A stretch of DNA of 44,647 bases from positions 1 to 44,647 of the forward strand of contig CAVZRV010000016.1 in NCBI GenBank assembly GCA_963777605.1, read 5' to 3'. Origin of the DNA: an uncultured Acidobacteriota bacterium. Lineage in GTDB: Bacteria; Acidobacteriota; UBA6911; RPQK01; JAPXNP01. Below the pieces are notes generated by a model. The model was given only the letters and a program-made list of their open reading frames with translations. It searched no databases and had not been told where the DNA came from. Positions 5,470-41,301 of this stretch are shown piece by piece; position 1 is the first letter of the stretch; each line of letters opens with the position of its first letter. The translations under genes were made by a program, and so were the position numbers.

Positions 5470-6684
5470 ATGGAGAATTCTCGGATAGGTGTCAAACCCT
5501 CGACGAAAAGAGTTGTGCTGACTACGTGCAGCGCCTGGACGTTGCGTCAGGGGGAGCTCCGTGGTCCGCTGAAGAAATCGGCGACGGAAACATCAACTTG
5601 GTCTTCCGTGTCCGGAGGGCGGGAGCGGAGAATCTCTAGTCGTCAAACAGGCGTTGCCCTATGTCCGATGTGTTGGAGAGGAGTGGCCCCTGGACCTGAG
5701 TCGCGCGGTTCGCGAGGGGAAGGCACTTCAAATCCAGGACGAATTGGCTCCGGGTCTTGTTCCAAAGGTTCATCGAATCGACGAAGAGATGGCTCTCATT
5801 GTTATGGAAGATCTGTCTGGCCTAGGAGTGATGCGTGCCGGCACGATCCGAATGAAGAAATATCCACGTTTTGCGGATCACATCTCGACGTTCATGGCCA
5901 ATGTGCTCTTCTACACTTCCGACCTGCATAGAGATCCAAAAGAAAAGAAGCGACTGGTAAAGGAGTTCATTAACCCAGATCTGTGTCGTATCACAGAGGA
6001 CCTGATCTTTACCGATCCCTACTACGATTGCCCGCGCAACAACGTGAGTTCTGCCTTGAGACCCTACCTCGAAAGAGTGTTTTGGAAGAAGAGTTGTTTG
6101 CGGTTGGAAGCCTCGAAGTTCAAATACAAGTTCCTCACGGCTGCAGAGAGTCTGGTTCATGGTGACCTGCACACTGGGTCGATCTTCGCAGACGAGACCC
6201 GGACGAAGGCCTTCGATCCCGAGTTTGCCTTCTTCGGGCCAATTGCGTTCGATCCCGGGCTTCTGATCGGAATCTCCTCATCAACTATGTCTCCTGGAAC
6301 GGCAAGGACAATCCGGCCGAAGAGATACGGGACTATCGAAAGTACTTGTTGGGAACGATCAACGAGACTTACCGGATGTTCGACCAGAAGTTCAAAGTGA
6401 ATTGGGAGAAGGACGCTCGCGACAGCATGACCACTGTGGTTGGCTTTCGCGAGACTTTCATGCGGAACCTGTTTGTGGACACCATCGGCTATGCAGGTAT
6501 CGTCATGATCCGGCGCGTGCATGGTCTCGCGCACAATGTCGATGTCGATGGGATTGCAGACCTTGAAAGGCGTAGAGAGGTCCAAACGCTGATCCTCGAA
6601 TTGGGTGAAGATCTGGTCATGAATCGGCACTCATTCTCGGATATCGAGGATGTGACGGCATTTGCGGGGCGGAGGATTGCCTGA
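5470..6684 (+). CDS. mtnK: S-methyl-5-thioribose (or 5-deoxyribose) kinase (frameshifted)
   Basis: Motifs EIGDGNINLVFRV, KQALPYVRCVGEEWPL, NPDLCRITEDLIFTDPY, LVHGDLHTGSIF, DPEFAFFGPIAFD and IRRVHGLAHNVD lie across ORFs 5457..5639, 5654..6400 and 6346..6684. Confidence 0.93.
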
Positions 6685-6698
6685 TCAATCCGTCCCGG

Positions 6699-7781
6699 GT
6701 GCTCCAGTTCGAGAGAGAACTCAGAAATGGAGAGCATGTGTCAGGAGGGCTGAAACCAATCGAGTGGAGGGATGGAACACTCTATGTCTTGAACCAACTC
6801 GAGCTTCCCGGACACGTCAAGTACAATCCCAGGAACTCCGTAGCAGAGGTGTTCCGGGCGATTCGGGACATGGAACTGCGCGGGGCGCCGCTGATCGGGA
6901 TTGCAGCCGCGTATGGCCTTTGCCTCGGCGTCCGGGATCTGGGAGAGATCGGTCATGCCAAATTCATGCGAACCTTGAGAGGGCATGCCGAGTTTCTCGC
7001 CTCAGCTCGTCCCACCGGAGCCAATCTCTCCTGGGTCCTTGATCGAATGCTTACGAAGGTGAACCGGCTCGAATCCCTCTCGGTTTGCGAAAAGAGGAGA
7101 GTCTTGGAGGCGGAGGCGAACCGGATCTTTCAGGAGGATGCGGAGATCTGCAAGGCGATCGGTGAGAACTTCCTGACCATGATCGGCGACGGGGTGAGTC
7201 TGCTGACTCACTGCAACGCGGGCAGCCTTGCGACAGCCGCCTACGGAACTGCAACCGCTCCCATGTTTCTGGCGAAGGAGAGAGGGTGGAGCATGAGAGT
7301 CTACGTCGATGAGACCCGTCCCTATTTGCAGGGCGCCCGACTTACGACTCTGGAGCTACAGTCGGCGGGTATTGACGTCACACTGATCTGCGACAGTGCG
7401 GCGGGAGTGGTGCTTTCTCAGGGGAAAGTCGACGCGGTGATCACGGGAACGGATCGCGTAGCGGCAAACGGGGACGTGGCCAACAAAGTAGGTACGTTGA
7501 GCCTGGCGATCCTCGCCCACTACTTTAAGGTCCCTTTCTACGTGGCGGCTCCGACACCGACCATCGACATGGATACCCCTTCGGGAAAACAGATCCCGAT
7601 CGAAGAGCGGAAGACCGAGGAGGTGACGCGATGCGGCGGAATCCAGACGGCGCCGGAAGGCACACGAGCCTACAATCCTGCGTTCGACGTCACTCCTCAC
7701 GAACTGGTTACCGCAATTGTCACGGAGAGAGGCATTGTGACGCCGCCCTATTCGCAGTCCTTGCCGGAACTGTTCGATTGA
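6699..7781 (+). CDS. mtnA: S-methyl-5-thioribose-1-phosphate isomerase (copy 1, intact; true start may be ~40 bp downstream)
   Basis: LRGAPLIG, ARPTGANL, LTHCNAGSLATAAYGTA, DETRPYLQGARLT, GTDRVAANGDVANKVGT and YNPAFDVTP. It lies directly downstream of mtnK. Confidence 0.95.
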   Translation: MLQFERELRNGEHVSGGLKPIEWRDGTLYVLNQLELPGHVKYNPRNSVAEVFRAIRDMELRGAPLIGIAAAYGLCLGVRDLGEIGHAKFMRTLRGHAEFLASARPTGANLSWVLDRMLTKVNRLESLSVCEKRRVLEAEANRIFQEDAEICKAIGENFLTMIGDGVSLLTHCNAGSLATAAYGTATAPMFLAKERGWSMRVYVDETRPYLQGARLTTLELQSAGIDVTLICDSAAGVVLSQGKVDAVITGTDRVAANGDVANKVGTLSLAILAHYFKVPFYVAAPTPTIDMDTPSGKQIPIEERKTEEVTRCGGIQTAPEGTRAYNPAFDVTPHELVTAIVTERGIVTPPYSQSLPELFD

Positions 7782-8054
7782 CAACGGCGGATCGCTGACT
7801 CGCCCAAGCTTGAGCGAGCGGCTGCTGTGCCCTCGGAGTTTGAACGGGTGAAAGTGGTACCACGACATGCACCTGATTATCTGGGTAGTATACTGCTACC
7901 TTGACGCTTGCCATTGAGATTTTTTTGGGGGGGGCGGTTCCCCGAAAGTTGGACGGGAAAGGGTCTGGGGTGCTGGCAGAGGCCGGAATGTGGGTTGAGG
8001 ATTGCCTTGGAAGACAGACTCCATTGTCCGGGTCCTGAAGACGGAGTGAGAACC

Positions 8055-8945
8055 ATGGAAGAGGAAACAACATTGGCGGGTGGAGTGGCCCCTTCGGTCT
8101 CGAGCTTGAAAGCTCTGTCCCAAATTCGCAGTCACCTTCCCGGTCTAGCTCGGGCGGAGTCGGACGTTGCCTCCTGGGTTCTTCAGAACAGCCAGCAGAT
8201 TGTCCGCTTGTCCATGGCGCAGGTTGCCCGCGAATGCGGTGTCAGCGACACGACCGTGCTACGATTTTGCCGAGCGGTGGGTTTTCACGGGTATACCGAT
8301 TTGAAGTTTGCCGTAGTGCGGGACATGGCATCTCCGACACAGGTCATTCACGATGATCTGGCCGCGGACGACACCCCGCCTACCGTTGCCCGCAAGGTCT
8401 TTCTGGCGAATATCCAGGCCCTTAAGGACACGATGGAGGTTCTTGACCTGGAGGGATTTGAGAAAGCAGTCGACATGCTTGAGGGAGCAAAGTCGAGTCT
8501 GATCCTGCTGGTCGGAGTGGGGACTTCGGGGCCGATCGTGCAGTCGATGTACAATTTCTTGTTTCGTCTGGGGCTCAACTGCCGCGCCGAGACCGATTCG
8601 TACCTGCAGCTTATGCAAGCCGCTCTCATCCGGCCGGGAGATGTGGTGGTTGGTATTTCCCAATCCGGTAGTTCCAGTGACCCGGTCCTTACGATGGCTG
8701 AAGCAAAAAGGAATGGGGGTCAAACAATATGCATCACCGGGAATGCGCAGTCCCCGATTACGGAGTACGCGGACGTCACATTGTTGAGTGTCTCCAGTGA
8801 AACCCGCTCGGAAACGATCGCCTCGAGGATCGCCCAAAGCACAATTGTGGACGCACTCTACGTCGCCTTGGCCCTTCGGGACATAGAGCGCGCCATTGAA
8901 GGTGAGGGGAAGATCTGGAACGCGACTGCGTTGAAGTCGATCTAG
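8055..8945 (+). CDS. RpiR/MurR family transcriptional regulator (HTH plus SIS domain)
   Basis: HTH LSMAQVARECGVSDTTVLRFCRAVGFHGY and SIS motifs GVGTSG, GISQSG, ITGNAQSPI and SRIAQ. ATG at 8055 follows GGAG. Confidence 0.93.
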   Translation: MEEETTLAGGVAPSVSSLKALSQIRSHLPGLARAESDVASWVLQNSQQIVRLSMAQVARECGVSDTTVLRFCRAVGFHGYTDLKFAVVRDMASPTQVIHDDLAADDTPPTVARKVFLANIQALKDTMEVLDLEGFEKAVDMLEGAKSSLILLVGVGTSGPIVQSMYNFLFRLGLNCRAETDSYLQLMQAALIRPGDVVVGISQSGSSSDPVLTMAEAKRNGGQTICITGNAQSPITEYADVTLLSVSSETRSETIASRIAQSTIVDALYVALALRDIERAIEGEGKIWNATALKSI

Positions 8946-9720: not shown

Positions 9721-10843
9721 TTGAAGGTCGAGGGGCAGCACTTTCGAACAATTTGGCGGAAGAAGGACGACCCGAGCGTTGTTCAAATCATCGATCAGCG
9801 TCACCTGCCGCATCGGTTTGTAATTGAAGACCTGAGAACCGTAGATGAGGTCGTCGTCGCAATCTCTGAGATGCATGTTCGGGGGGCGGGGCTGATCGGA
9901 GCAGCCGCAGGTTACGGAATGTACCTGGGCGGGCTGACTTCACCACGGAGTTCGGACGATGCGTTTCTGGAGGCGATGGACTCCAGTGCCCGCAGACTCA
10001 AGGAGAGCCGGCCGACCGCCGTGAATCTGGAGTGGGCCGTGAACCGGCAGGTCGGAGTGCTGAACAGGGTTCTGGGCATCGATGGGATGATCCACGCTCT
10101 GCGGCAAACAGCCGACAGGATTGCAGACGAGGATTCGGAGTACTGCCGGCGAATCGGAGAACACGGCCTCAGGATCATTGAGGAGATCCGCTCGAAGAAG
10201 GGGGGCGAGCGCGTCAACATCCTCACTCACTGCAACGCGGGATGGCTCGCCTTTGTTGACTATAAAACAGCCACTGCCCCGATCTACGAGGCGCATGACG
10301 CCGGAATCCGGGTTCACGTTTCGGGTCGACGAGACGCGACCCCGGAATCAGGGCGCGGGCCTGACGGCCTGGGAACTGGGCCAACACGGCGTCCCTCACA
10401 CCGTGATCGTCGACAATGCCGGCGGCCACCTGATGCAGCATGGACGGGTGGACATGGTCATCGGGAACGGATCGAACCCTGTATACGGGCGACGTAGCCA
10501 ACAAGATCAGGCACCTACCTGAAGGCGCTGGCCGCTCGGAGACAACAACATCCCCTTCTACGTCGCCCTGCCCTCCTCGTCTTTCGACTGGGTCTTGCGC
10601 GATGGAGTGAAAGAAATCCCGATCGAAGAGCGGAGTGAGTCGGAAGTGAAATGGGTGGACGGGCTTGTCCGAGACAAGGTCGAATCTGTGCTGGTGACCC
10701 CGGCCTCCAGTCCCGCAGCCAACTATGCCTTCGACGTGACCCCGGCCCGTCTGGTGACGGGGCTGATCACGGAGCGCGGGATCTGCCGAGCGTCTGAGGA
10801 AGGCATCCTGGGACTGTACCCCGAGATGGCAGGCCGGAGGTGA
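9721..10843 (+). CDS. mtnA: S-methyl-5-thioribose-1-phosphate isomerase (copy 2, frameshifted)
   Basis: [62 protein letters not shown] and [20 protein letters not shown] lie across ORFs 9721..10497, 10121..10522 and 10595..10843. Confidence 0.92.
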
Positions 10844-13824: not shown

Positions 13825-13925
13825 TTCACGCCCTCCCCAATTGATTAAGAATAACGGTTAGTGGTGAGCGGCGACCCTGGAATTCGCAGACTGGACAATG
13901 TCCGCGCCAGGAAGATGCCCCATAC

Positions 13926-18300: not shown

Positions 18301-18440
18301 TCCGCGCGGAGTTCTTCAACGCGTTCAACCACGCTCAGTTTGTGGGCTTGGGCATGACGGCGAATGATCCGAACTTCGGCCGGATTACGTCAGCGAGAAA
18401 TCCGAGATATATCCAGTTTGGGCTCAAACTCAACTTCTAG
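15301..18440 (+). CDS. TonB-dependent receptor with N-terminal carboxypeptidase-regulatory-like domain (Oar type; one frameshift near 17690)
   Basis: Signal peptide, ILGAVTDQQGSFIPG, LPLNGRNFIQLAQLSPG, KSGTNEFHGSLFEFLRND, QDNWK, NNFAPRIG and C-terminal QFRAEFFNAFNH...PRYIQFGLKLNF. Confidence 0.93.
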
Positions 18441-19910: not shown

Positions 19911-20924
19911 ATGACCCGATTTCCGAAGTGGGGCTGCGATAGTAGCATTCTCGATAATGGCCTTCACGAGCCCTCATCTGTACGGAGGCTCGGTCCGGCT
20001 TATTCTTTGACACCGACATGGGAAATGATATCGACGATGCCTTGGCCCTTGGGGTGATTCACGCCCTTGAAAGTCGCGGAGAATGTCACTTGTTGGGAGT
20101 CGATTACCTGACAAAAGAGCACCCGATGGGTGCTCCCTTTGTCGACGCCATCAATACCTTTTACGGACGTGGCGGCATCCCGATTGGTGTCGTTCACCAT
20201 GGCAAGGGCCGCCAGAGTCTGCGTACTTGCAGGCAGGATTGGCGAAGGATGCGGGCGGTGAGTATATCTATCCACACGACCTCGTCGAGAACCAAGATGC
20301 GGAAGATGCCGTGACACTTTTGCGGCGCCTTCTGGCCGGATCGGAGGACGGCTCGGTCGTCATCGTCCAGGTGGGTTTCAGCACGAATCTCGCGGCTCTT
20401 CTGGAAACGAGCCCCGACGCGATCAGCCCGCTGTCGGGGCCGGATCTGGTCCGCTGAAGGTCCGCATGCTGTCCGCAATGGCCGGCAATTTCTTGGAAGA
20501 GGTTCCAGAATTCAATGTCTTCGTCGACCGTGATTCGGCCGCAAAGGTGTTCTCGACGTGGCCCACAGAGATCGTATTCAGCGGCTTTGAGATCGGTCAT
20601 GCGATCCCCTATCCAGCGGTCAGCATCGAAGAAGACTTCGGCTATGTGAAGAACCATCCCATCGCAGACGCCTATCGGGCCTACAGTTCGATGCCCTACG
20701 ACCGACCAACGTGGGATTTGACCTCCGTGCTGTTCGCCGTCCGTCCAAATCGCGGCTACTTCGGATTCTCCAGACCGGGAATAGTCAGTGTCGACCAGCA
20801 AGGACGCACCAGCTTTCAAGAAAACGAAACAGGTAAACATCGCCACCTGACCGTTTCGGAACGCCAGAAGGAAACGACGCTGGAAGCGCTGATTCAGCTG
20901 ACGAGCCAGCCGCCATGCAGATAG
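19911..20924 (+). CDS. Secreted IUNH-family nucleoside hydrolase NH3 (frameshifted)
   Basis: RBS then ATG 19911. FDTDMGNDIDDALAL, VQVGFSTNLAALL, MAGNF, EFNVFVD, SGFEIG and RPTWDLTSVLFAVRP. Confidence 0.85.
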
Positions 20925-21095: not shown

Positions 21096-22784
21096 CTAAG
21101 AGCCAATCCGAAATGCCTGTTCTATGCTCTTCTCCTCGCCTGAGATCTTGTCCTGCACGCTGATGTCGATGCGATAGTCGCCAGAATCAAGACTCGATGC
21201 ATCGAAGGATCTAACCACAGCTACTCGACCTCCCCGATAGATTCGTAGGAACTCTCCCAAGTAGTCCAAGATCTCGAACCTTGTCTCAGACCCATGAGAA
21301 ATTCGATAAGAAACAGAGAGTGAGGGGATTTGAGAGGCTTGATCCAAGGTCGCATTGTAGATCTGAAAGTAGAGACCTATTGTCTGATTCTGGGAGAAGA
21401 GCCTCTCTGTATTCGGGTAAACCCTGAAGTCTCCTAAGACGAACATTCCCGGCTCGGCGGAAGCCTGATCGATCTCGACGCAGGACTCAGCCAAAATAAG
21501 GGAGCTTAGAGCAAGCTTGCCAGCAAGGTATCGAGGCGTAACGATCGCACCTTCATAGACTCCAATATTCCCGGTATTAAGATCCTTGACAATCAATGTG
21601 AGCTTATAGCGCCCTCCGGTGTCCAAAGGAATCATTCGCTGGTAGAGGGAGCGTCCCTTCAAGACCTGGGCCAAATGCTTCGAAGGGTAGGAAAGTTGAA
21701 GATCATCATCGAATTCGTAGACAACTCTATTGCCGATGGAGGTGACCACGCCGTACACGGCGGCTTTCGCCGTTACATTGTTTCCGGCTGCAGCAAATGT
21801 AAGCGTGTGGTTCTGAAATTCCAGGGTGACAGGCACCAGAGCTCTTCTTGTATCAAACTGCAGATAATCAATCTGCACGTTGAAGGGAAGGTTGGAGAAG
21901 GCAACGTTCGTCTTGACAAGCTGCTGCAGATCCTTGTATCGAATCTTCGCGGGAGCCCGAACTCCTGAGAATCTTTCGAATCGCATAAACGGATCGTCCT
22001 GGATTCTGGGGTGTTGGTAAGGGTAATTGTTTCAGGCGAGAAATAGGGGCGGTCCGACTCGAGCCCAGCCGAGGCTTTCAGCAAGAGTGAGACCCGCACC
22101 AGGGACATTGAGCAGCGCATCTTTCTCTTCGGGAAGAAGGGCGAGCCGAAACTCCCCAGACTGACTACTATCCACAAACTCGAGTTCAATATCGTCTCCA
22201 ATTCCGTCGATGTGTCGATACCTCCATATCTCAAAAGGAAATGTCGAAGTGTATCCCCCACCTTCATGATAGGGTCTTTTGTAGCTGCCACCTGATGGAT
22301 GCGACTCGACTTCATCCGGGGGTCCATGGATAATGTAAATCCGGCCCCGGTCGGTTTCCCAGCCCGGGATCCCACTCTGAAAGTACTCGTTCACGTAGGC
22401 GATTCTACGGTAGTGCTCTTCTTTGTATTCATTCACACGGGTCGTGGGATCCGAGTCGCGCCGAAACCAGAACTGCTCAATGAAGCGTTCCTGCTCCTCC
22501 GCCGTTGTCAGCTTAGCGAAAACCTCTTTCTCTTCGTCAGATATGATGTAGACGACATCTTGAGTCAACCATTTTCGGTAGTAGTCCTCTGCCTCTTCCT
22601 GGCGAAGTTTTTCATCGCGTGTCTGAGGTGGACTAGAGATAGAAAATGCCGGAGAGAGGAGAGAGGCAAAAAGTACAATCCAAGTGAGCCTAATGATCAA
22701 GCGAGCCAAATCTTCGGTGCACCTCATTGCACGAAGACGCTTCATGTCTGACCGCGAGTGATCCAACACGCTATACTCAAGCAT
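21096..22784 (-). CDS. GWxTD domain-containing protein (frameshifted near 22030)
   Basis: [45 protein letters not shown] and PFEIWRYR, with a beta-rich C-terminal half in ORF 21096..21986. Confidence 0.9.
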
Positions 22785-22979: not shown

Positions 22980-24187
22980 ATGAGGGTGTTTCTGGTCGTA
23001 CTCGATTCTGTTGGGATTGGTGCTGCTGCGGACGCTGAGGAATATGGGGACGAAGGAGCCAATACCCTCGCACATACGGCCCAGGCCGCAGGTTCGCTCC
23101 GCGTACCAACGCTCGAGACCCTTGGGCTTGGCAGGGCCGCCGCCGCCGTCCCCGAGTGCCTAGCGGTTCAGGGAGTTTCCGCATCCGTTCAGCCTCTTGC
23201 CTCTTTCGGCGCGATGGAAGAGGTCTCCCAAGGAAAAGACACCGTTACTGGGCATTGGGAAATAGCAGGTCTACTCCTCAGACCTGGTTTCACGGTCTTT
23301 CGAAAGGAGTCTCCATCATTTCCGGAACAACTCACTGCAATGTTTGAGGCGGAGACAGGTCGGCGAATCATCGGTAACTGTGCAGCGAGTGGGACGGCGA
23401 TCATTGAGGAGTTGGGCGAACCTCAAATGCGCGAAGGCTCCTGGATTGTTTACACAAGTGGCGATTCTGTCTTCCAGATTGCTTCGCATGAGGGAGTAAT
23501 ACCTCTGGAGGAACTTTATCAGGCGTGTTCCACTGCGAGGAGACTCTGTGATGAGTATCGTGTCGGGCGTATCATTGCTCGGCCTTTCCTGGGGAGGCCG
23601 GGAACTTCAGACGCACGGAGATGACGGGATTTTCCGTTCCCTCCGCCGAGGACTACGATTCTTATCGTCTGAAGGAACATGGAATCCATGTGAGTGTGGG
23701 CAAGATTGATGATATTTTCTGCGGTCGAGGCATTTCTCAGTCGATACACGTCCTCAACAACTGTGAAGCCCAATCAGCGATACTTGAACTGGCGAACCAG
23801 CTCGACCACGGACTTGTGTTCGCTAACCTCATCGACTTTGACATGTTGTACGGTCACCGGAGGAACCCAGTCGGCTACGCCCGGGCGTTGGAAGAAGCCG
23901 ATCTATTTTTTGGACAGCTGATCGCCGCCATGAGAGGATCGGACATCCTGATTATCACCGCCGATCATGGAAATGATCCAACATTCGAAGGTTGCGATCA
24001 CACCAGAGAATACGTTCCCATCCTGCTCTATGGCCCCGGCCTACCGGCAAAGGATCTTGGAATTCGCAAAGGCTTCTATGATGTGGCGCAAACGCTGGCT
24101 CATCTTTTCCAGATTTCACCTATGCCTCACGGGCAGTCATTCGTGGAGAAGAATGCCGGGAACGTGAGCGAGCAAGATCCTCCTTGA
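22980..24187 (+). CDS. deoB: Phosphopentomutase (frameshifted near 23620)
   Basis: VVLDSVGIG, GKDTVTGHWEI, ASGTAII, IVYTSGDSVFQIASHE, GRIIARPF, FANLIDFDMLYGHRRN, ITADHGNDPT and DHTREYVP. Confidence 0.95.
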
Positions 24188-24404: not shown

Positions 24405-25536
24405 TCACAGTCCATTCAGGATGCTGAGGAAATGGCGACTACTCTCGACGAGGTCGAACTCCGCCGCTGCACGCCTCGACCGACAATCAAGACAAAGTCC
24501 TTCTCATAGACTCGCACCAGATCGGCAGCCCGATCGGTCGTCATACCGCCGCCCGGTGCCGGAAAGATGGTCGCAACGTCACCCATCCCGCACCTACATC
24601 CCTCAACAATCTCGGCGCATTCCTCTCGAGTGAACGAAAAGCGGCCGCCGTAGTTCGGAAAGATCGTCATGTCCCGCCCGCGAGGCGCATGATCTGGCCG
24701 TATAGGGCGAAGTGGCTCAATCCGTTCTCAGGTGTTGTGACGAAGCTTCCCCAGAAAGAAGGGTGGGCCATTATGGGCAAAGCCAGCGAGTCATCTTGCG
24801 CAAGGACTCGCATAGCATCGATGCCCACAAGTCCCGGACAAATCAGCAGGGCGCCCGCGCCGGCGGCCTTGGCCCGACGCGCGAGAAGCGTAACCTGATC
24901 GCTCGGCCCCGTCACATTCGGTGCATAGAGGCATCGACTTCCATGTTCTTGATTGACCTTCGCCACAGCCTCGACGCAGCGCGCAACGCGCTCCTCAAAT
25001 GGGGCGAACACTTGGTCGGTGAGCCCGTGATCATCCTTGACAATGTCGATCCCACCCCGCGCAAACTGACTGGCTTGCTCCGCGAGCTCGATGGGCGAGA
25101 GGCCCATCGGTTTCAGCACAGCACAGACCAGGGGCCTGTCGGCGATGCCGAGATGGTTGCGCAGGCCACGTACTCCGTAGCGCGGCCCACGAAAGCGGGC
25201 CAACAGGCTGCCGGGCAAGTTGAACCGTTCCACTTTGATGCCTGCCTTGAGACTGATGTTTCCGAAAATAACATTTAGCAGTTGAACGAGGTCGCCCGCC
25301 GCCGTCTCAACTGCATAGCTGATGACGGCCCGGAATCTGGATTGACCGGCTGGCTGAAAGTCTTCCACGCGGCCGACCACGTGGTCTTTTATGAATCCAT
25401 CTGGAATGAGGTCGCTCGGAAACTCAACCGTTTGCTCGTAGCAAATGTCCTTGGCCTTCTTGGTCGCCAGCCGGTTGTCGCCCGTGAGGAGATAGGAAAC
25501 CGTGAAACGCTCGCTGCCAAACAACCTTTCGTTCAT
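24405..25536 (-). CDS. rlp: RuBisCO-like protein (form IV, KDDH type; probable 5-methylthioribulose-1-P 1,3-isomerase; frameshifted near 24670 and 24470)
   Basis: EQTVEFP, QLLNVIFGNISL, GPRYGVRGLR, LKPMGLS, GGIDIVKDDHGLTDQ, MAHPS, IFPNYGGRFSF and PAPGGGMT. These motifs match the R. rubrum-type RLP. Confidence 0.92.
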
Positions 25537-25543: not shown

Positions 25544-26549
25544 CTACAATGCCTCCACTCGCGCGATGTTGTGGACCGGTTCGATTCGCACCCGCTCGAG
25601 ATCCTCCTCTCGAATTCCGAGCCTCATGCCAATCATCTCTTCGATATGGAGCACAAGGGCCATGGCATCGATTCCGTACTTCCTCATCAGGTAGGGCCGG
25701 CTTCCACCGTGGGCGAACGAATCGCGGAGCCCAACGCGAACGAGGCGTTTCCGACTCCGTTCGTCGCCATCACCTCCGCCACCTCCGTTCCGAGTCCACC
25801 CACGATTGAATGGTTTTCCAATGTTATGACACCGTAGCGCGGTTTGGAAACCGCCTCGAGGATCACCGGATTCGTGAATGGCTTATGCGTCGATACGTGC
25901 AAGTGGTGGATGGAGACGCCCTTCCCACCTAGAATGGCGATCGCGCGCAATGCCTCTTCGGTGCAGATCCCGGCCGTAATGAGGGTTACGTCCTGGCCCT
26001 GATGCAAGATACGCGGATGGTTCACCACGAGTGGTTCCTCGACAGGGAACAACCTGGGCATCTCACCGCGGAGCATTCGCACGTATACCGGGCCGGGTAG
26101 AGCGAAGACCGCGTCGAGCACGGTTTCTACTTCCGTTGCATCCCCAGTCTCGAACACCGTCATATTTGGTATTGTGCGCATGACGGCAACATCCTCGATT
26201 GCCTGATGAGTCGCACCGCCTGGGGTCGTGATTCCGGGCAGGAATCCGAAAAACTTAACGGGGAGATTCGAATAGGCAACCGAACTCACAATCTGGTTCA
26301 AGGCCTGCCGGTAGATGAACACGGCGAAGGTGTGTACGAACGGGATGTATCCTTCGCGGGCGAGCCCGCCTGCAAGACTGACCATATTCTGCTCGGCGAC
26401 TCCCATCGAGAAGAATCGGTCCGGGTAGGTATCCTTAAACGTATCGATCTGGTGGAACCCGTCAAATCGGCCGAGAGAACGACGACTTCCGGCTTGTCCT
26501 TCGCCCAGCCCACGAGATTCTTGGCGTGAACCCTTGAAACGATCTCCAT
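25544..26549 (-). CDS. Transketolase-like enzyme, C-terminal (pyrimidine-binding) subunit (frameshifted)
   Basis: VLSADLTGS, DRFFSMGVAEQNMVSLAGGLA, TFAVF, GGATHQAIED, PVYVRMLRG and TLENHSIVGGLG. It ends ...ARVEAL* 8 bp before the rlp start. Confidence 0.9.
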
Positions 26550-26552: not shown

Positions 26553-27497
26553 CTATTCTCCCGTCTCCAGGTTCTTCATCACTGACTCATAAAAGTCGCG
26601 ATATTCCTCTCGTTCTTCCGAGGAGGCAAAGCGCACATAGTGAAGCTTAGGTCGTCGCTTCTCAAGAAGTGGAACACCTCTACAGGGATCCGTGTAACAA
26701 AGGACCACAAGCGGGCGACCGTCAGGCGCCAACTGCGATGGCTCAACAAGGGCTCTGATGTCGTGTCCGTCCACCCCAAACACCCGGCCGCCGAACGCCT
26801 CGATCCGCTTCGTGAGAGGTTCGATCTGCATGACGTTCTCTGTCCTTCCATCGCACTGCTGACCGTTGATGTCGACATAAATACCGAGATTGTCGAGATG
26901 GTAATGCGACAGGGTTTGCAGGCTCTCCCAGGTCTGACCCTCCTGGAACTCCCCATCAGACAGAAATACCCAAATACGTCCCTGTTGTCCTCTTGACTTG
27001 CGCGCGAGCGCAATACCGGCAGCTTGACTCAGGGTCTGAGCGAGAGCCCCCCCCATCATCTCGAAACCGGGCGAATGTTCCGCGCCGATCATTTCGACCG
27101 TGCTACCGTCCTGATTGAACTGGTCGAGGCTGGCCGGATCCATCCGTCCAACCTCGATGAGCGTGGAGTAGAGAACCAGAGCGTAATGGGCCGGGCTCAA
27201 GTAGAAACGATCGAACTCCGGATCGCGGGCGCCGTTGTAGGCTCCGCCCGCTTTATAGCCGATTTGGGAGGCTGATGGAACCCCTTGGAAGGGCGGAGGA
27301 ACCATCGGAGCGGTGCTCCTGCCCAGACGCGCGATCTTCAGGTAGATGCTTGCGAGAATTTCAGCCGAGGAACAGGCTTGGCTCAGGTAACCGCCGTTGT
27401 GGAGGATGGTGTGCTCCATCACCCGTCGACGGATCCCCCCCGCGGCTCGTTTGATCTCATTGAGAACCCGTGATTCGATGCCAACTCCAGCACCCAT
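26553..27497 (-). CDS. Transketolase-like enzyme, N-terminal (ThDP-binding) subunit
   Basis: DRFYLSPAHY, ThDP motif SDGEFQEGQTWE...DINGQQ, VDGHDI and KLHY. It stops 4 bp before the C-subunit start. Confidence 0.9.
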   Translation of the reverse strand: MGAGVGIESRVLNEIKRAAGGIRRRVMEHTILHNGGYLSQACSSAEILASIYLKIARLGRSTAPMVPPPFQGVPSASQIGYKAGGAYNGARDPEFDRFYLSPAHYALVLYSTLIEVGRMDPASLDQFNQDGSTVEMIGAEHSPGFEMMGGALAQTLSQAAGIALARKSRGQQGRIWVFLSDGEFQEGQTWESLQTLSHYHLDNLGIYVDINGQQCDGRTENVMQIEPLTKRIEAFGGRVFGVDGHDIRALVEPSQLAPDGRPLVVLCYTDPCRGVPLLEKRRPKLHYVRFASSEEREEYRDFYESVMKNLETGE

Positions 27498-27936: not shown

Positions 27937-29350
27937 ATGAGACATAAACAGAGGTGTTTGCGGTCTCTTGTTGGCCTAGCCTACTTTTTTGCCTTTTGCC
28001 AGGTTTTGTTTGCAGGATCGGGGCTCATTTCAGTCAAGTGCATCGATCAGGATGGTCGAGCACTGAAGGGTATAAAGGTATACCTGCAGTGCTTGAATAA
28101 TGGTAAGGCTGACGACGCAAAGACGAACAGCGAAGGACTTGCCCGGTTCGATAAGCTGAATGCCGGCGTCTATCGAGTCTGGACTCAGGTAGACGGTTTC
28201 ACGCCCGCTTACTTTGAGTTTCTCCGCATGAAGGATCAAGCTCAAGAGACAGTAACCCTCAACCTGAAACGGGGAGACTCGGACGAAAAGCTCTATTTCC
28301 AAGACTCTGAGGTCTTGGCGAAAAGTGAAGAGTACGCAAAGCAAGGCAGTGAGTTTCTCAACCAGGGTCGGATTGCTGAGGCAAAGGAAGCGCTTGAGCG
28401 GTCACTCGAAATCAATCGGTCCAACCCGCTCGTCTATCATAACCTTGCCGTAATCTACGGACGTCTGAACCGCTGGGACGAGTCCGAGGAGAGCCTTCGG
28501 AAAGAGCTGCAGATCCTCAACGCATTCAAGGATCTGCAGAGCGTCGAGAACGCTTCGCTGGAGCGGCTGTACCAGTCCGCCAGCCAGCTCCTCGACTCGC
28601 TACCGGTCAGACGGGCCGTGTCAGAAGCGAATGCGGCGATGCAGGCCGAAGACTACGAGGCCGCCCTGAAGGGACTCAAGGAGGCAGTTCAAATCGACTC
28701 GTCGAATGCCCAACTGCATTTCAGTATGGCCGTTGCCTATGCCAAGCTCGGGCGCGTCGGAGAGGCCAAGACCGCTCTGGAAAGGGCACTGGCATTGGAC
28801 CCAGAGAACCAGTCGTACAGGGCCCTTGGAGAACAGATTGCTCAGTTCCAGAGTCAGATGGCAGCGAAGAAGTCCGCATCGGCTTTGGCCGAGGTTCAAG
28901 AGCTCAACAACAAGTCCCAGTATCAGAAGGCTTTAGACATGTTGAATGACTCTCGCGACGTCATCGTCGACGCCAATTCATCCGCCTTCTGGGAGAGAGA
29001 TCAAGAGCCTATTTCGGGCTCAAGCAGTATGCGCTCGGCTTTGAGGCCCTGCAAAAGGAGTGGGAGTTGGAGTCGGAGTCAAACGGCTGGACCAGGGCTT
29101 TTACGAGCTCGGAAAGGACTTCACGAGAAAAGGAAATCAGGAGGGGGCTCACAAGGCCTTTGAGAAGGTGTTGGAGGTGAATCCTCAATTCGCAGAAGGC
29201 TACTACGAATTGGGAATGGGCCTATTTTACGATGCAAAAGATCGAAGCCGAGCACGTGAATTGTTGCAGAAATACCTGACACTCGGTAAGGATGAGGCTC
29301 ACCTTGATAATGCACAAAATGTACTCAAGGTGATTGAACAAGAACAATAA
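27937..29350 (+). CDS. Secreted protein with carboxypeptidase-regulatory-like domain plus TPR repeats (frameshifted)
   Basis: Signal peptide, DQDGRALKG...TNSEGLARF..LNAGVY beta-sandwich and TPR helices (HNLAVIY, FSMAVAYAKLG, YYELGMGL). Confidence 0.75.
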
Positions 29351-29364: not shown

Positions 29365-30725
29365 TCAGCCGATCCCGTACTCGGCAGGCAGAATGCGTCC
29401 TGCAACGGAGGCGTCGGCAAGCATCTTCTCGATGATTCGGTCTTCGGTTTCGGGAAGTCTTGCGAACTCGTCGCACATTCGATCCAGCCAGGGACGCTCT
29501 CGCTCGGGCAGACGCAGCCGCCCCGAACCCAAAGCCGTCTTCAATTCCTGCAGGCTGGCGCCGACGGCGGCCAGCGTCTGGAGGTAGGGATCGCTGAGCC
29601 GGGCGATCTGTTCGGATATTCGGAGGACGACGTCCGGTTTCAGCAGCCAGGCCTGGGGATCCAGCGGGGCATCGGAATCGCTCAGCCAGTCCCTCAACAG
29701 CCTGGCCTGAGTAGGTGACGAGGAAAGCGCCGTGTTCATCAGGCGGCAGTCGTAGACAAGCTGCTCCAAACACATCCGAGGAGCCCGCCCGCTCAGCATC
29801 TGAACATTCTGAACCGATTCGTTCGACCAGCAATCGCAGACGGCCTGGCTGACGTTGCCCAGCGGGCTAAGATGCGCGCAAGCGGCGGTCCGGCCCTCCA
29901 TAGAGATCGGGATGCCCGCGATCGCCTTGAGATAGGGACCCTCGTAGGCACAGTCCTTGCTCGGCCCGGCGCCCCGATGCGGTACGGCACCAGGCTCCTT
30001 GGAACCGACGCGACCCGGACGATCGCCGCAAAAACCGGGGGATCACCTCCGTTTCCCCAGCACCATCGCCGTGTTGGCAAACCCGCAAGCCGTATCTCCG
30101 GAAGGCACGATGTGCTGGGACCGGAAGCGTACGAGGTGGTGCCAGAGGGATCCATATCGCGGGCTCCGAGAACTCCGAGCGTGAAGACGATCGGCCAGAT
30201 CCGCCTCGACCAGGGCGTCGTCGCAAACCTCCTTCCCTCCGGTGGACTCCACGGCGAGGAGGTCGGCCCCCCAGCTTCCCGCTTTGTTGAAGAGCTCGAG
30301 CATATGACCCCAGTGTGCGTTCGAACGCATTCGCGGAGGCGTCCGAACTCCCGCGCGTCGTCGGTGTCAGCCGCAGGGCGGTCCACAGGCCGTATCTTGT
30401 GAAATTTCGCCATCCGTTTCGAGACAGCCCGGAAATCTCCAATCCCCACTCGGGCCGGTCGGTCATGGGAGCCAGCGTTTCGAACTCAACCAGCAGTTCC
30501 GGCGTCTCGAGCTCCACGGCCCTCTCCAGTACCGACCGGATCATCTCTTCGTACTGTCGCCGCACTTCGGCCCAGGTCTCGTCACAATGTCGATCGACGG
30601 AGGGGTGAAGTTGATTTCGGGGACCACTCGTCCACCGCCGATCAGCAGGCCGGTTCCGCAATGGACCGGCTCGGAGCGCTGCCGAAGATGAAGTCCTCCA
30701 GACGTTCGATAGCAAGTCCGGTCAT
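29365..30725 (-). CDS. mtaB: MtaB-family (methanol:corrinoid-type) methyltransferase (many frameshifts)
   Basis: DFIFGSAP, IGGGRVVPEINFT, LVEFE, ADLLAVESTGGKE, GDTACGFANTAM, GPSKDCAYEG, ISMEGRTAACAHLS.LGN, DCWSNESV and YDCRLMN. The Zn-ligand Glu/Cys/Cys motifs of MtaB are present. Confidence 0.9.
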
Positions 30726-30756
30726 TTTTCCTCCGCGCCAACTCCGCCCAGAACCA

Positions 30757-31376
30757 CTACAATGCGGGTTCGAGCAGCCGTTCGACGACTTGAACGGCTT
30801 CATCGGCATCCTCTCCAAACCCGTCTGCCCCGATCTCCGGGCAGCGCCGGTGACTGGGGCCCCGCCCACGACGATCCTGACGCCGGGCCGGTCCGAAGTC
30901 GGTCCACGACGGTCTTCATGGAGGGCATCGTCGTAGTGAACAGCGCAACGATACAGAGCGTTGTGAAGCCCCGATCCACGGCTGGGAGGCTTCTCAACCG
31001 CACAGTCCACCCCCAGGTCTTCAACCTCGAAGCCGGCGCCTTTGAGCATGACGACAACGAGGTTCTTCCCAATGTCGTGCAGATCGCCTTTCACCGTGCC
31101 GATGGCGACCTTTGCCCGAATCCGTGTCCCTTTCCTTGCAAGCGCCGGTTCGAGCAGGTCGAGGCCGGCCTGCATGGCCGGGCGGCGATCAGCATTTCCG
31201 GGACATAGATCTCCCCCGCGAGAATCGGCGGCCGACTTCCCGCATGGCTGGAATCATGGTCTTGTCGAGCAGTCCGAGGGATCACCATCTTCCCTCAGGT
31301 TCTGATCGACGATCTGAACGGTGGACTTCCGGTTCCCCGCGATGACTGCGTCGAAGAGCTCACTAATCCGAGCCAA
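30757..31376 (-). CDS. Corrinoid-binding protein (MtaC/MtbC-like; frameshifted)
   Basis: GEIYVPEMLIAAR, IGTVKGDLHDIGKNLV (DxHxxG B12 motif), GFEVEDLGVD, LFTTTM and VVGGAPVT. TTG start at 31376 follows GGAGG. Confidence 0.9.
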
Positions 31377-31431: not shown

Positions 31432-32728
31432 ATGGCGAGAACTTATACGATTTTGCTGCCTTGGCTCCTCTTTCGAGTCTGTGGGCAGCCGCGGGAGATC
31501 GGCCGGAGTGCCAGAACAGATGCTGAATGCGGTCGAGCAAACCTTCTCGGCGTACGAGAGGGAGTATGACGTCAATCCGAGGCTCATGGGGCCGGATGGG
31601 AGAGGGTTGCCGGTCGGCCGGAACCGATCGACGATCTGCCCTTCCTGAGAAGGACACGAATCCACGCCCTGCAGGAGTCGATTCGTTGGGGAGAACCCTG
31701 CACCTACTTCCTGGCCCCGGGGATCGTCAGCTGGATGGTTGCGCTCGTCGAAGGCCGCCGGCCAAGGCGGATTGATCGGTGGAGAAGTCGTGGCGGAGGA
31801 CGAACCCGAGGACCGCCTGGAGGCCACTAACCATCTGGTCGCCTGCGGAGCATCCCGCGCCGCCGCTCTCCAGTTCGTCAAGGCGCTTCCCGCTTGGCCG
31901 CAGGTCCGGACGCAGGAGGCTGCAAATCGACTCTGTGCGCTCTTCTATGCGGACAGCGGCTGGTCCGCTCTGCTCCTCGACGAAAACCGGGAGCGGGCGC
32001 TCCAGCAGAGGGAGATCGCCGATGAGATCCATTGCCGGAAGGAAGGGGGGAAGGGGAATTCCCCTTCCGGGAGGAGCGTGTGCTGCGCTCACTGATCCGC
32101 TCTGGAGACCGCAAGCGGGCACGGAAGCTGCTGAATAGATATCTCGGCGCGGTCTTCCTCCAGTCTCCCGACCTGGTCGTGGTGCGTGCGCTCATGATCG
32201 AGATGCTGGGCTACCTGGTCCGGACTGCGGGCCAGGACAGCGCTCATCTGGGATTCTTGATCGAGAGCAGCCACCGCTGGACGGGCAGAATCATCGCCGC
32301 CCGGTCGAACCTCGCACGTCGTCAAGAACGCCCTGGACGACTTTATGAACACCATCTACCTGTTGGGGTTCGAGAGCGGTCATCCGGGTGTTGCCCGGGT
32401 GCTTGACTACATTGCCGCTCATTTCCAGGAAGAAGTCCGGCTCCAGGACCTGGCCGACGAAGTCCGACTGAGCACCTTTCGGATCGCTCACCTGGTCAAG
32501 GAACGGACGGGCCGGACGATCCTGCAGCACGTTCACGAGATGCGAATCCGCGAGGCCCAGCGTTTGCTGGAGGAATCCCGGCTGTCCTGTGCCGAGATCG
32601 CATACGAAGTCGGTTTCACGGACCAAAGCTATTTCAACCGCCGCTTTCGGGCCCTCACCGGCATCACGCCGCGCCAGCATCGCCGGCTCTACCTCTCTCG
32701 AAAGCCGAAAGAACGGGCTAGTTTTTGA
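31432..32728 (+). CDS. AraC-family regulator with probable N-terminal PocR-like sensor (frameshifted, start uncertain)
   Basis: The C-terminal AraC HTH reads LDYIAAHFQEEVRLQDLADEVRLS...EIAYEVGFTDQSYFNRRFRALTGITPRQHR. The middle has EERVLRSLIRSGD and the N-terminal fragments have GGLIGGEV. It is divergent from the corrinoid gene. Confidence 0.8.
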
Positions 32729-32971: not shown

Positions 32972-33067
32972 CAGGTTGCCCACGAACCATGAAAAGCGGT
33001 ACTATCTTGTGTGGATCAAGACTTGGCCAACACGGACTCTCGGTCCCACTTTTCGTTCGGAGGCACC

Positions 33068-34176
33068 ATGAATCGCCTTCTTCTGACACTCCCGTTGTTA
33101 CTTGTTCAGGGCTTCCTGACCGTGACGCTTGCCCAGCCTCATAGGGTAATCTTCGATACGGAGTTCAAGGGCCACTTCCGCCGCAGGATGATGCACCTTG
33201 CCCTTCTCCTGGCGCTCAACTCCCCGGAGATCGAGGTTCTGGGGATCACGACCGTGGCAGGAAACAAGAGCCGTGAGCAGGCCACCGCCGACGCCCTCAA
33301 GGTCCTTGAGGGCGTCGGTTGCGAAGAAACGCCGGTCTATCCCGGTGCAAACATGCCACTTATCCACGAAGTTTCGGAGTTCTCCTTCAAGCAACATGGC
33401 GAGTGGTGGAAGGACGGACCCCCAGATCCCCCTCTTGGCGAATTGGCCAGAAACAAGACCTGAAGTGAGAACTGCCGTCGATTTCATCGTCCGGACGGTA
33501 CTGGATAATCGGGACGAGATCACCATCGTGGCCATCGGACCTCTGACCAATATTGCTATGGCGATTCGCCAAGACCCTGACTTCGCCATGGCTGTAAAGA
33601 GTCTATATATAATGGGAGGAGCAGTCGCTTCACTGCCGGATGGTGCCAGCAACGTGACGCCCAATGCCGAATTCAATTTCTGGGTTGATCCCGAGGCCGC
33701 TCGCATCGTCCTACGGTCTGGCATTCCAATCGAACTGTCCCCGTTGAATGTCTCACGAAAGACTAGATTCTCTAAGGAGGACTTCGAAAGGATTGTGCGC
33801 GTCTCTAATCCCAGTACTCAGTTGCTGCGGGAGACGATGACGGCGCAATTCCAGCGGGAAGAAGCTATGTCCTCTCATTACCTAATGTATGATCAGGTTG
33901 CGGTAGCCAGTCTTCATCGATCCGTCTTTGGTTATGACCAAGGAATTATATGTTGATGTCGATATTAATCAAGGAGTCAATTACGGTGTTTCAGTTGGTG
34001 GAACCGAGGTGTGGCCAGGAGCAGAAGGCGCGCAGAGGATCCGAGTTCAGTATGACTTGAATTCGAATAGATTCATTAATCTTTTTGTCGACCGTATCTT
34101 TGACGAGTGGAAGAATTGGGACACATTGATCGTGTTCACGACCGCTAGAGATGGTGTGGAGCTCTATTATATTTGA
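33068..34176 (+). CDS. Secreted IUNH-family nucleoside hydrolase NH4 (frameshifted)
   Basis: Signal peptide MNRLLLTLPLLLVQGFLTVTLA, VIFDT..PPQDD, GITTVAGN, AIGPLTNIAMA, MGGA, NVTPNAEFNFWVDPEAA, PLNV and MYDQVAVA. Confidence 0.9.
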
Positions 34177-34299
34177 CAGGGCGTAATTGGTGTTAGGTAC
34201 GGTTCAAGAATCAGAAGGGTGCTTGATCATGACGCTGGTGCCTAGGTCCGGGGTATACTTTGATGCGGCTTCGTTACCGTAGTCCATGTCCGCAGTCCT

Positions 34300-36104
34300 G
34301 TGCCGACGTGGGGAGGATGTACACTTGATCTCCACTGTTTCCTCCCGCGGCCGTTTTCTGCGATCGACTTGCGTTTAACTTCTCGCTTATTCAAGTCGCT
34401 GCTTTCCGGCTTTGCTTTGCTGTGCGTGCTCATTCCAACCGCATTCGCTCTCCAAGTCGACGGTTCCTTTCAGCAGTTGCTGCGACAGGCACGGACTTCG
34501 CTCGAGAGGGGCCAGCCTCAGGGCGCGCGTCCTCTGTTGGAAGAGGCGGTCCGTCTTGAACCTGAGTCGGTCGTGGCTTGGATGATGCTGGCGGCCGCCT
34601 ATTCTCAGCTCGGGATGGAGCTCCAGGCTATCGAAAGCTACAGGCGAGTAATTCAGATCCAGCCGACTATCCCCAGCGCGCTCTACAACCTCGGCATCCT
34701 TGAGATGCAACAAGGAGATATGGGCTCTGCCGTCCGGAGCTTGCAAAAAGCGCACGCTCTAAGACCTCACGATGTTGGGATCGCGCTTCCCTTGTCCACC
34801 GTCGTCGAGTCTAGGTCGGGCACCAGAAGGCAAGCAATAGTGACTGCCCTAGAACAGATGCCTGAGATGTCACGCTTCCCTCAGGGTAGAGCTCGGAAAG
34901 GTGCTTGTGGATTACGATCTTTACCGAGAAGCGGCGCGCGTTTCCAGGGGACGGGACTCTCACAGGTGCCCGGCAATGTAGAGCTCAAGCTGTCTGCTTG
35001 CTGTCAGCCTTTTCCGGCTCGGCGAGTTCTGGAGAGGTAACCCCTCTTCTGGTAGGACGCGCGATTGAAGATCAGATTCAAGCACAGCTTTTGGCAGCTT
35101 CGCTCGCGAGAAACGGGCCGGCCGAATGCTCAAGCCGAGATTCTCGAAGACGCGGTCCACCAGTTTCAGGACAGAAATCTCTTCCTGGATTCCGCCGTCC
35201 AGCACTTCCTGGATGCCTGGGTGCACCGCCGCAGGCCGGTCATCAGAACGCTGAGTTCCGGTTTCGAGTCCCCTGGCTCAACGATCTTCCCCTGCGGTCG
35301 AAGCTGGCCCAGTTGTGCGCCAGCGAGCAGCGTTACTCGGAGGCGATCTCACTGCGGCAACCACAACCCCTTGATACTCTGTCCAACCGGGAACTGGAAG
35401 ACCCGAATGCAAGGCTATCTGGCACTACGTTGGGGGGAGAAGGCCGAAGGGGATGGTGAGGACGGCGACGCGGAACCACCGGATGCCGTTCAGAAGCCAT
35501 TCATCGTACTTTCGAACTTTCTGCATCTTCTGTGGTGAAGACCCCGAGGTGAATCGACTTTTGGCAGAAGCCGCTGACATCTGTGAATATTTTTCAGGGA
35601 TGCTCCGCCCGTTACCTTTTCACTTTGAGTATGAGCTATTACAGTCTATGTTAATTCGACCACACCCGCGATACGCTTGCTCGAGTCTTGAGCCTGGAGC
35701 CATCGTTTACACAGGGCCTACTTTCTAATGGCGCATTCGTTCTCCAGAGAGCTTCAGGAGATCGCGAGAGGGCACTGCCCTATTACGAAGAGGCAATGAG
35801 ACTGGATCCGGATAACCCCTCGTACGATTTCCAGTTGGGACTTGTCCTCGGCCAAACCGCAAAGAAAGAACAGGCCACAATTGAATTGCAGCGTTGGCTT
35901 GTGCTGAAGGAACTCACGCGCCCGCTCTATTCGAGCTTGCCCGCATCTATTTTGCAGACTCTAGACTGGATGAGGCTCAACCCTCTGCTCGAACGCGCGA
36001 TCGAAGCCAATCCGGAGTTCGAGAAAGTTCTTACGACCCGCTAAGCCAAGGTCTATGCGAGAAAGGGACGCACAGCAGAAGCCCGTGCAATGCTCGAGCA
36101 GTTT
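34300..36104 (+). CDS. TPR-repeat protein (heavily frameshifted, boundaries approximate)
   Basis: TPR helices AWMMLAAAYSQLG, ALYNLGIL, YYEEAMRLDPDNPSYDFQLGLVL and ALFELARIY appear in several frames. Confidence 0.65.
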
Positions 36105-36175
36105 AAGCAAGTTCAAGATAGAATCCGGCAAAGGATGAAGCAGTTGAAGGCTCAGGTGTTTCCCAGGGACCAGCG

Positions 36176-39096: not shown

Positions 39097-39110
39097 CATT
39101 AGGCAGGATT

Positions 39111-40067: not shown

Positions 40068-40144
40068 TGTTGCGAGCACGATTGAGATAAGCAACTCATT
40101 TGCGGCTCTGAGGATGGTAATCCAGTGTTCTTAATGGAGGAAAC

Positions 40145-41066: not shown

Positions 41067-41301
41067 CGAGTTCTCTCTTTCTTCTCGACGCGCCTAGGTG
41101 GCCGGAGATACATGGTTATCCGAAAGACATGAGTGCAAGATTGAACGAGAGAGTCATTTCCATGGCAGCGCCTTCATTACGTCGCAGAGCCTTGGCCATG
41201 TACTCCTTTTCGTGTGCGATCATACGATCCTGGAAACTCTGTCCCAGGGAACCTTTTTCGTGAAAGTCAATGCCCAGTCTGATGGTAGAATGCGAGTTAT
41301 T

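Follow-up and report, generated by a model that had tools for sequence, protein, structure and literature searches.

A split transketolase with a remodelled active site, encoded next to a RuBisCO-like protein, as a candidate cleavage enzyme for 1-methylthio- or 1-deoxy-xylulose-5-phosphate

Introduction

The contig analysed here (44,647 nucleotides, from an uncultured Acidobacteriota bacterium; hereafter the window) encodes, next to a RuBisCO-like protein (RLP), a transketolase-like enzyme split into two subunits and deviating from canonical transketolases at several active-site positions. Which sugar phosphate would such an enzyme act on, and what would it make of it? The initial annotation had suggested an active site remodelled for a donor lacking a C1 hydroxyl. 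A literature search, covering titles, the openings of abstracts, some passages and part of the papers of the groups that defined the relevant pathways, returned no description of an RLP-linked transketolase or of the diatom fusion described below. We argue that the enzyme probably performs the last step, one not described before, in the breakdown of the sugar from used S-adenosylmethionine (SAM).

Results and discussion

An intact N subunit with a conserved signature

The two subunits and the residues at issue are the following:

26553..27497, minus strand: N subunit of the split transketolase-like enzyme, binding the ThDP diphosphate; 314 amino acids, intact; Pfam Transketolase_N, match to 6yak
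27387..27389, minus strand: Tyr37, replacing His26 of E. coli TktA; alignments, 120/120 homologues
27228..27329, minus strand: family-specific 27-column insertion region, residues ~57–90; a gap in canonical transketolases; invariant P, F, G, P, G, G
27066..27107, minus strand: loop GSTVEMIGAEHSPG, residues 131–144; Ile137 (27087–27089) at the His100 site, His141 (27075–27077) equivalent to E. coli Tyr105
25544..26549, minus strand: C subunit of the transketolase-like enzyme, comprising the pyrimidine-binding and C domains; frameshifted around 26455 and 25745; FLPG and GGATHQ motifs

All three transketolase-fold domains (PP, Pyr and C) score above cut-off (PF00456, PF02779 and PF02780). The closest PDB entry to the N subunit by sequence is 6yak (E 2e-32), which also matches by fold over 271 aligned residues (Z 29.1, rmsd 2.6); the ESM Atlas adds just ‘transketolase’. 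The N-subunit ORF starts with ATG and has zero internal stops, whereas the neighbouring C subunit and RLP genes are frameshifted, as are many genes of the window, in the manner of an unpolished long-read contig; these frameshifts probably come from sequencing error. All eight top homologues tested align to the N ORF in a single reading frame, with 0–1 gap columns. Conservation was counted in the best 120 of 4879 homologue matches, where Tyr37, Ile137, His141, Asp181, Asn211 and His286 are each present in 120/120, Met136 in 119/120 and His104 in 118/120. Such complete or near-complete conservation marks the odd residues as a subfamily signature and not an error; the single-frame alignments and the conservation rule out a frameshift artefact as their source, in agreement with the initial annotation.

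The motifs described in that annotation were all located: the region corresponding to GSxLxGHP reads GSTVEMIGAEHSPG, the N-terminal motif reads GGYLSQA (residues 35–41), and SPAH (101–104), SDGE (180–183) followed by Asn211, and KLHY (284–287) are retained. Asp181 and Asn211 form the GDG..N motif for the ThDP metal and diphosphate, and the canonical His26/His261 pair is broken, with Tyr37 at His26 and His286, the equivalent of His261, kept. In the profile–profile alignment, 27 gap columns in canonical transketolases stand opposite the conserved insertion.

Isoleucine at the site of His100

The register was taken from a profile–profile alignment (hhalign) of the N-subunit family against 21 canonical sequences and from a MAFFT alignment of 119 rows, comprising 98 of 150 representatives that passed a length filter and 21 others; the E. 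coli TktA and Dxs references came from the K-12 record. Both alignments (hhalign probability 100) pair Tyr37 with E. coli His26, His104 with His66, Met136 with Gly99, Ile137 with His100, His141 with Tyr105 and His286 with His261, although within the GSTVEMIGAEHSPG loop the hhalign confidence drops to 4–5 of 9 and the predicted model has its weakest internal part there (pLDDT 56 for residues 131–140). The histidine of GAEHSPG might have occupied the place of His103, as the initial annotation recognized. By sequence it does not: His141 falls on Tyr105 in both alignments, which exclude it as a displaced His100, and 8/55 rows that keep His100 also have His in the His141 column, so that His141 appears to be a separate position. 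A loop shorter by one residue was also seen in 5/29 pattern-matched enzymes that retain the histidine. The hydrophobic pocket of Met and Ile put forward earlier thus stands for Ile137, at the His100/His103 site; Met136 was rejected as a pocket residue, aligning with Gly99 and being replaced by Leu in diatoms. The comparison with DXP synthase (DXS) held, in that Ile137 is aligned with Phe107 of Dxs in the MAFFT alignment and this site carries Phe or Tyr in DXS (PMC13663882).

Changes in the C subunit

The remodelling of the active site, confirmed in the N subunit, extends to the C subunit, where it had been overlooked. In the GGATHQ motif, Gly replaces Asp469 and His473 is kept; across 77 C subunits of related loci, the change of Asp469 to Gly and the reading FLPG for the His461 region are both found in 77/77. 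The equivalents of Glu411 (the cofactor-activating residue), Phe434, Phe437, His473 and Arg520 are each present in 77/77, that of Ser385 in 74/77, and Arg or Lys occupies the Arg358 position in 71/77. The pair as a whole keeps the ThDP residues Asp155, Asn185, Glu411, Phe434 and Phe437 as well as His66, His261, His473 and Arg520. The aligned residues indicate that the enzyme retains its cofactor machinery and the majority of its phosphate contacts but has lost three residues that bind substrate hydroxyls, His26 and His461 being counted among these; with Asp469 replaced by Gly and FLPG in the C subunit, the enzyme possibly departs from the usual aldose-acceptor transketolases. In 13 loci, many from Nitrospirota, the two subunits are fused in one ORF (L011, L022, L024, L040, L041, L046–L048, L055, L062, L067, L069 and L074), and in several of these the RLP is distant or absent.

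Origin of the substitutions

Some of these substitutions are shared more widely. The 51 rows of the 119-row alignment with Tyr at His26 include none with His100, 33 with Ile and 10 with Ser, the latter belonging to a clade of split transketolases from Pantoea, Rhizobium, Azospirillum, Paracoccus and Arthrobacter plasmids. These enzymes share with the RLP-linked family the Tyr at His26, the loss of His100, the LPG motif and the loss of Asp469, but differ in having Ser at His100, Tyr at Asp469 and no insertion; they neighbour SDR, TRAP/MFS and DhaK/L genes, with an RLP in none of the five loci opened (L087, L088, L089, L094 and L099). Although annotated as plain transketolases, they probably perform another reaction. 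As Tyr at His26 and the losses of His100 and Asp469 are common to such RLP-free, SDR/TRAP-linked enzymes, part of the remodelling predates the RLP pathway. The link made earlier between the remodelling and a donor free of the C1 hydroxyl is qualified to that extent, Tyr26 and the loss of His100 recurring in the RLP-free clade (Ser in 10/119 rows). On the alignment, Ile at His100 appears to mark only the RLP-linked family and its nearest sister clades, and context searches for the sister clades with Ile gave nothing closer than 50%. A quick tree of 103/119 rows, drawn open after removal of 16 divergent or partial rows, joins most Tyr rows weakly (SH-aLRT 92) and leaves a single one, P0185, immediately beyond that group, so a single origin of the Tyr rows is unproven by the tree.

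This partial ancestry bears on one alternative, namely that the enzyme is functionally an ordinary xylulose-5-phosphate (X5P) transketolase which inherited its odd residues from the Tyr clade and serves an operon degrading plain ribose or nucleosides via ribose-1-phosphate, ribulose-1-phosphate and RLP-made X5P. All of His26, His100 and Asp469 are nevertheless lost here, with complete conservation, and all ten split transketolases assayed in one study retain His100 (PMC13663882).

The hydrophobic residue shared with DXS raises another alternative, a carboligase which would decarboxylate pyruvate and join the C2 unit to glyceraldehyde-3-phosphate or another aldehyde, for instance one from a neighbouring aldolase. 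Some database records call the protein a DXS N-terminal domain protein; moreover, exchange of His100 for Phe or Leu increases pyruvate use, according to part of one report (PMC7661550), and pyruvate with propanal is accepted by an E. coli variant that bears both H100L and D469T, according to part of another (PMC10787763), the same two sites being altered in the RLP-linked enzyme. Yet DXS retains His49 and Asp427, where the RLP-linked family has Tyr and Gly, and the DXS model TIGR00204 gives the two subunits 20.5 and 111 bits and a fused member 196, far below the cut-off of 466. The neighbouring genes, too, encode the kind of importers, kinases and sugar regulators seen in a catabolic cluster, and we consider pyruvate carboligation highly unlikely.

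The RLP and other genes of the window

Genes of the window that bear on the substrate are the following:

24405..25536, minus strand: RLP carrying the KDDH motif; frameshifted around 24680 and close to the 3′ end
5529..6636, plus strand: 5-methylthioribose kinase (MtnK/DrdK family), frameshifted; TIGR01767 311.7 bits (cut-off 275), tblastn
6699..7781, plus strand: methylthioribose-1-phosphate isomerase (MtnA/DrdI family), intact; TIGR00512 421.4 bits (cut-off 279)
7908..8945, plus strand: RpiR-family regulator, 57–65% identical to a regulator in 5/80 related loci
9721..10840, plus strand: second MtnA-like isomerase, frameshifted; profile and similarity searches

The closest solved relative of the RLP, by sequence (E 1.8e-51) and by fold, is 3qfw, an R. 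palustris RLP distinct from the RLP2 entry, which by elimination we take to be RLP1/RPA2169. By fold, MtnW enolases come almost as near (TM 0.90, 29% identity); the RLP passes no NCBIfam cut-off, and the OiaX and MtnW models remain far below theirs. According to a portion of the report on it, R. palustris RLP1 yields 1-methylthioxylulose-5-phosphate (MTXu-5-P) and 1-methylthioribulose-5-phosphate (MTRu-5-P) in a ratio of 3:1 (PMC5893883). The mtnK, mtnA and regulator genes lie ~18 kb from the transketolase genes.

The remainder of the window has a character of its own. A short phage-integrase-like fragment (10770–11525, minus strand) comes right after the second mtnA-like gene. A nucleoside-catabolism island comprises five IU-nucleoside-hydrolase regions (11931–12563, 12808–13857, 20071–20921, 32993–33953 and 41817–42338), a phosphopentomutase (22980–24187), a ribokinase-like gene (40236–41063), a dGTPase-like gene (4348–5196) and a ureide-permease-like gene (18597–19532). 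Genes for an MtaB-like methyltransferase, a corrinoid protein and an MtaA/URO-D-like protein occur at 29368–31253 and 13926–15041 (both minus strand), accompanied by an AraC regulator (~32032–32728, plus strand); with MtaB in 0/80 related loci and a URO-D-like gene in 2/80, a link to methanethiol is unsupported. Genes for a GWxTD-domain protein, a TonB-type receptor, TPR and FG-GAP/ASPIC proteins (21096–22784, minus strand; 15301–18440, 27937–29163 and 34264–44136, plus strand) make up a mix which we presume to be typical of Acidobacteriota.

The nucleoside hydrolases, the phosphopentomutase and the ribokinase-like gene would suit an ordinary transketolase in a ribose or nucleoside pathway, as would a ribulose-phosphate 3-epimerase found after the RLP in one locus. 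According to part of the relevant report, however, the B. thuringiensis kinase DrdK used only 5-deoxyribose and 5-methylthioribose among the sugars tested (PMC6079011), and the exchange with a methylsulfurylase-like cupin described below would be left unexplained. We therefore deem plain X5P turnover unlikely.

Gene neighbourhoods across phyla

A GTDB scan recovered at least 524 stretches encoding a relative, of which 80 loci were kept for context; the motif was itself part of the pattern scanned for, which makes motif counts in these loci circular to some extent, and the count in 120 homologues is preferred. An RLP is present in 69/80 loci, in 63 of them at most 400 bp away, and in 13/14 named phyla. 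Five of the 11 RLP-less loci end at most 1036 bp downstream, at contig ends, and six lack an RLP despite more than 4.6 kb of downstream DNA. MtnK is encoded in 16/80 loci, MtnA in 18/80 and either in 19/80, leaving 61/80 without them within the locus DNA examined; a phosphorylase-family gene lies immediately upstream of the transketolase in 2/80. A class II aldolase, which could cleave the ribulose-1-phosphate intermediate directly, occurs in 5/80 loci and in rhizobial loci. Neither acetate kinase, phosphotransacetylase nor E2 recurs among the 56 cluster representatives and 137 of 204 flanking singleton ORFs scanned.

Among nine plasmid loci, the order mtnK–mtnA–N subunit–C subunit–RLP is found in 5/9, all from related alphaproteobacteria and one with a mis-annotated RLP, and another locus has sugar kinases and an RLP. 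In Ponticoccus the run comprises a nucleoside transporter, a nucleoside phosphorylase, an amidohydrolase, mtnA, a BisC-like S/N-oxide reductase, both transketolase subunits and the RLP. Two of the nine have no annotated adjacent RLP; in both, the BisC-like gene is accompanied by genes for a Zn dehydrogenase, an AraD-like epimerase and a xylulokinase-like kinase. By stereochemistry, such a set would convert a 5-substituted ribitol to the same 1-substituted D-xylulose-5-phosphate. The BisC-like molybdopterin S/N-oxide reductase, encoded in 3/9 plasmid loci (L084 4355–11908, L096 3368–10947 and L097 6692–12041) and 0/80 GTDB loci, favours a sulfur-bearing substrate and might repair a methylthio-sugar sulfoxide.

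Further neighbours recur more locally. An RpiR–MtnA–LsrF-like–SDR–class II aldolase run precedes the transketolase–RLP genes in L015, L071 and L075; the substrate of LsrF is a 1-deoxy-diketopentose phosphate, and the LsrF-like gene hints at C1-methyl chemistry. In three Anaerolineae loci (L019, L038 and L045; 3/80) a microcompartment cluster lies directly upstream of the transketolase and, where present, RLP genes, comprising three EutN genes, BMC, a CcmP-like gene, an acylating, acetaldehyde-dehydrogenase-like aldehyde dehydrogenase and a 150-residue protein; shell genes are also found in L043 and L004, and the cluster is possibly an undescribed microcompartment type. A protein with a solute-binding fold, apparently (by eye) without a signal peptide, is encoded mostly just after the RLP in 12/80 loci (including L043, 4103–5236), and the ESM Atlas labels the gene following the RLP ‘solute-binding protein’; a Ponticoccus hypothetical protein was compared and is not the same protein.

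This variety of neighbours, including xylulokinase-like kinases, polyol-type dehydrogenases, LsrF-like proteins (7/80) and the signal-less binding protein (12/80), together with the functional diversity of RLPs noted in part of one source (PMC6302742), leads to a further alternative: the RLP and the transketolase are coupled but handle some other compound, for example another 5-substituted or branched sugar, or the RLP performs enolase or decarboxylase chemistry. MtnK and MtnA above curated cut-offs, the low OiaX and MtnW scores and the RLP residues shared with cupin fusions (below) speak against it, and we judge it very unlikely.

Fusions and the exchange with a cupin

A search with an RLP–N subunit fusion (P0122) extended the picture to eukaryotes. 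Among the 85 proteins listed as matches, 31 carry RLP and the N subunit by profile, 6 carry RLP and a cupin, none carries both, and 48, many of them fragments, show one part only; one is a fusion of MtnA with the N subunit. The diatoms Thalassiosira and Cyclotella encode RLP, N and C subunits in a single chain of ~1150 residues, Skeletonema forms being shorter (P0271–P0284 and relatives, across the three genera). The RLP–cupin fusions (P0303, P0313, P0314, P0334, P0341 and P0344) are algal-looking proteins whose cupin matches Rru_A2000 (3jzv, E 1.2e-18), identified in part of the source as the MTXu-5-P methylsulfurylase (PMC4958253). No Rru_A2000-like cupin was found within 10 kb in 98 loci or in the window (best E 0.0044).

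In a tree of 39 RLP rows, the transketolase-fused RLPs form one branch with one cupin-fused RLP (SH-aLRT 95), which is 77% identical to a transketolase-fused one, and the remaining cupin-fused RLPs branch outside. Cupin-fused RLPs match the transketolase-linked ones at most conserved positions of the latter, the LKP lysine and KDDH among them. From these sequences, the transketolase and cupin modules look interchangeable behind one RLP, and no other observation speaks more strongly for the enzyme using what the RLP makes; the algal fusions also suggest RLP-based salvage of methylthioadenosine (MTA) in marine algae.

A proposed reaction

Taken together, these observations make it likely that the enzyme replaces the cupin and cleaves 1-methylthio- or 1-deoxy-xylulose-5-phosphate to glyceraldehyde-3-phosphate and a C2 unit. 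The context (mtnK and mtnA, RLP fusions and the cupin exchange) points to the substrate proposed in the initial annotation, with the methylthio and deoxy forms as alternatives. We infer every chemical step from the observed residues, their register and the gene and fusion context. The 5-methylthioribose or 5-deoxyribose of spent SAM would first be handled by MtnK, through phosphorylation, or by a phosphorylase, through release, then isomerized by MtnA to the ribulose-1-phosphate form and converted by the RLP, which would move the carbonyl, to 1-methylthio- (or 1-deoxy-) xylulose/ribulose-5-phosphate. The N and C subunits, forming a ThDP/Mg enzyme with the split-transketolase fold, would act directly after the RLP: ThDP would add to C2, with Ile at the His100 site accommodating CH2–SCH3 or CH3, the C2–C3 bond would break and glyceraldehyde-3-phosphate would leave. 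The ThDP enzyme would thereby stand in for the cupin methylsulfurylase of the MTA-isoprenoid shunt.

Given such cleavage, the C2 unit could have three fates. Release as (methylthio)acetaldehyde or acetaldehyde is one tentative option, to which the acetaldehyde-dehydrogenase-like and shell genes upstream in 3/80 loci point. Just as tentatively, phosphoketolase-like loss of methanethiol would leave acetyl-phosphate or acetate; this draws on the exchange with a sulfur-releasing cupin and on the expense of maintaining three genes for an aldehyde that an aldolase can supply, a single enzyme sufficing for this in the DHAP shunt according to the part of the source consulted (PMC6079011). Transfer to a non-hydroxylated aldehyde is a slightly less likely option. 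We prefer the two fates without a sugar acceptor, considered together. At its most specific, and as a rather unlikely proposal, the enzyme would split 1-methylthio-xylulose-5-phosphate in one redox-neutral step into glyceraldehyde-3-phosphate, methanethiol and acetyl-phosphate or acetate; a split transketolase would then have evolved a phosphoketolase-type reaction in which a thiol is the leaving group. If true, this would amount to a glutathione-free, oxygen-free MTA salvage in numerous bacterial phyla, in an Asgard archaeon and in centric diatoms, would make the diatom three-domain fusion an unrecognized source of methanethiol, and would explain why three genes are kept where one aldolase already gives the aldehyde.

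More broadly, cleavage of a C1-modified pentulose phosphate would offer a function for the most common partner, in the loci sampled, of a widespread RLP clade, and predicts a further disposal route for the sugars of MTA or 5′-deoxyadenosine, beside the cupin and aldolase shunts. It would also present a natural enzyme altered at His100 and Asp469, the sites which engineers mutate for methyl-ketol donors.

Comparison with known systems

Relative to E. coli TktA, the RLP-linked enzyme shares the equivalents of His66, His261, His473, Glu411, Phe434, Phe437, Ser385 and Arg520 and differs in His26 (Tyr), His100 (Ile), Asp469 (Gly) and the His461 region (FLPG). The split transketolase of Carboxydothermus hydrogenoformans (6yak/6yaj), as presented in part of its report (PMC7661550), is alike in the two-gene layout, fold (Z 29.1) and ThDP-binding residues, but keeps His100 and the Asp469 equivalent (GEDGASHQ) and lacks the insertion. 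Dxs of E. coli is alike in its hydrophobic residue at the His100 site (Phe107 versus Ile137), but keeps His49, Arg420 and Asp427 and is one chain. Apulose-4-phosphate transketolases have an FGGY apulose kinase context and canonical histidines; one Agrobacterium locus with an apulose-like context, a label which is our guess, keeps His26 and His100.

Phosphoketolases cleave the C2–C3 bond, lose a leaving group from C1 and transfer an acetyl unit, a possible likeness, and no match to that family was listed in domain, profile or PDB searches of the window proteins. Within the parts of the sources that we draw on, the MTA-isoprenoid shunt of R. rubrum and R. palustris is alike in MtnA, a phosphorylase or kinase and an R. 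palustris-like RLP (PMC5893883; PMC4958253), but here a ThDP enzyme would take the place of the cupin, the products would be glyceraldehyde-3-phosphate and a C2 unit in place of DXP, and glutathione would not be needed. The RLP of that shunt is of the DeepYkr type, an MTRu-1-P 1,3-isomerase, and the RLP studied here is a candidate for the same activity. The DHAP shunt (DrdKIA), on the same partial footing, has the same first two enzymes and a C3 plus C2 split of a 5-substituted ribulose phosphate, performed by one class II aldolase there versus, as we propose, an RLP and a ThDP enzyme here (PMC6079011). By the features compared, the system appears to be neither a canonical transketolase, nor DXS, nor the cupin shunt, and in function it would come closest to the MTA-isoprenoid and DHAP shunts, as a variation on them.
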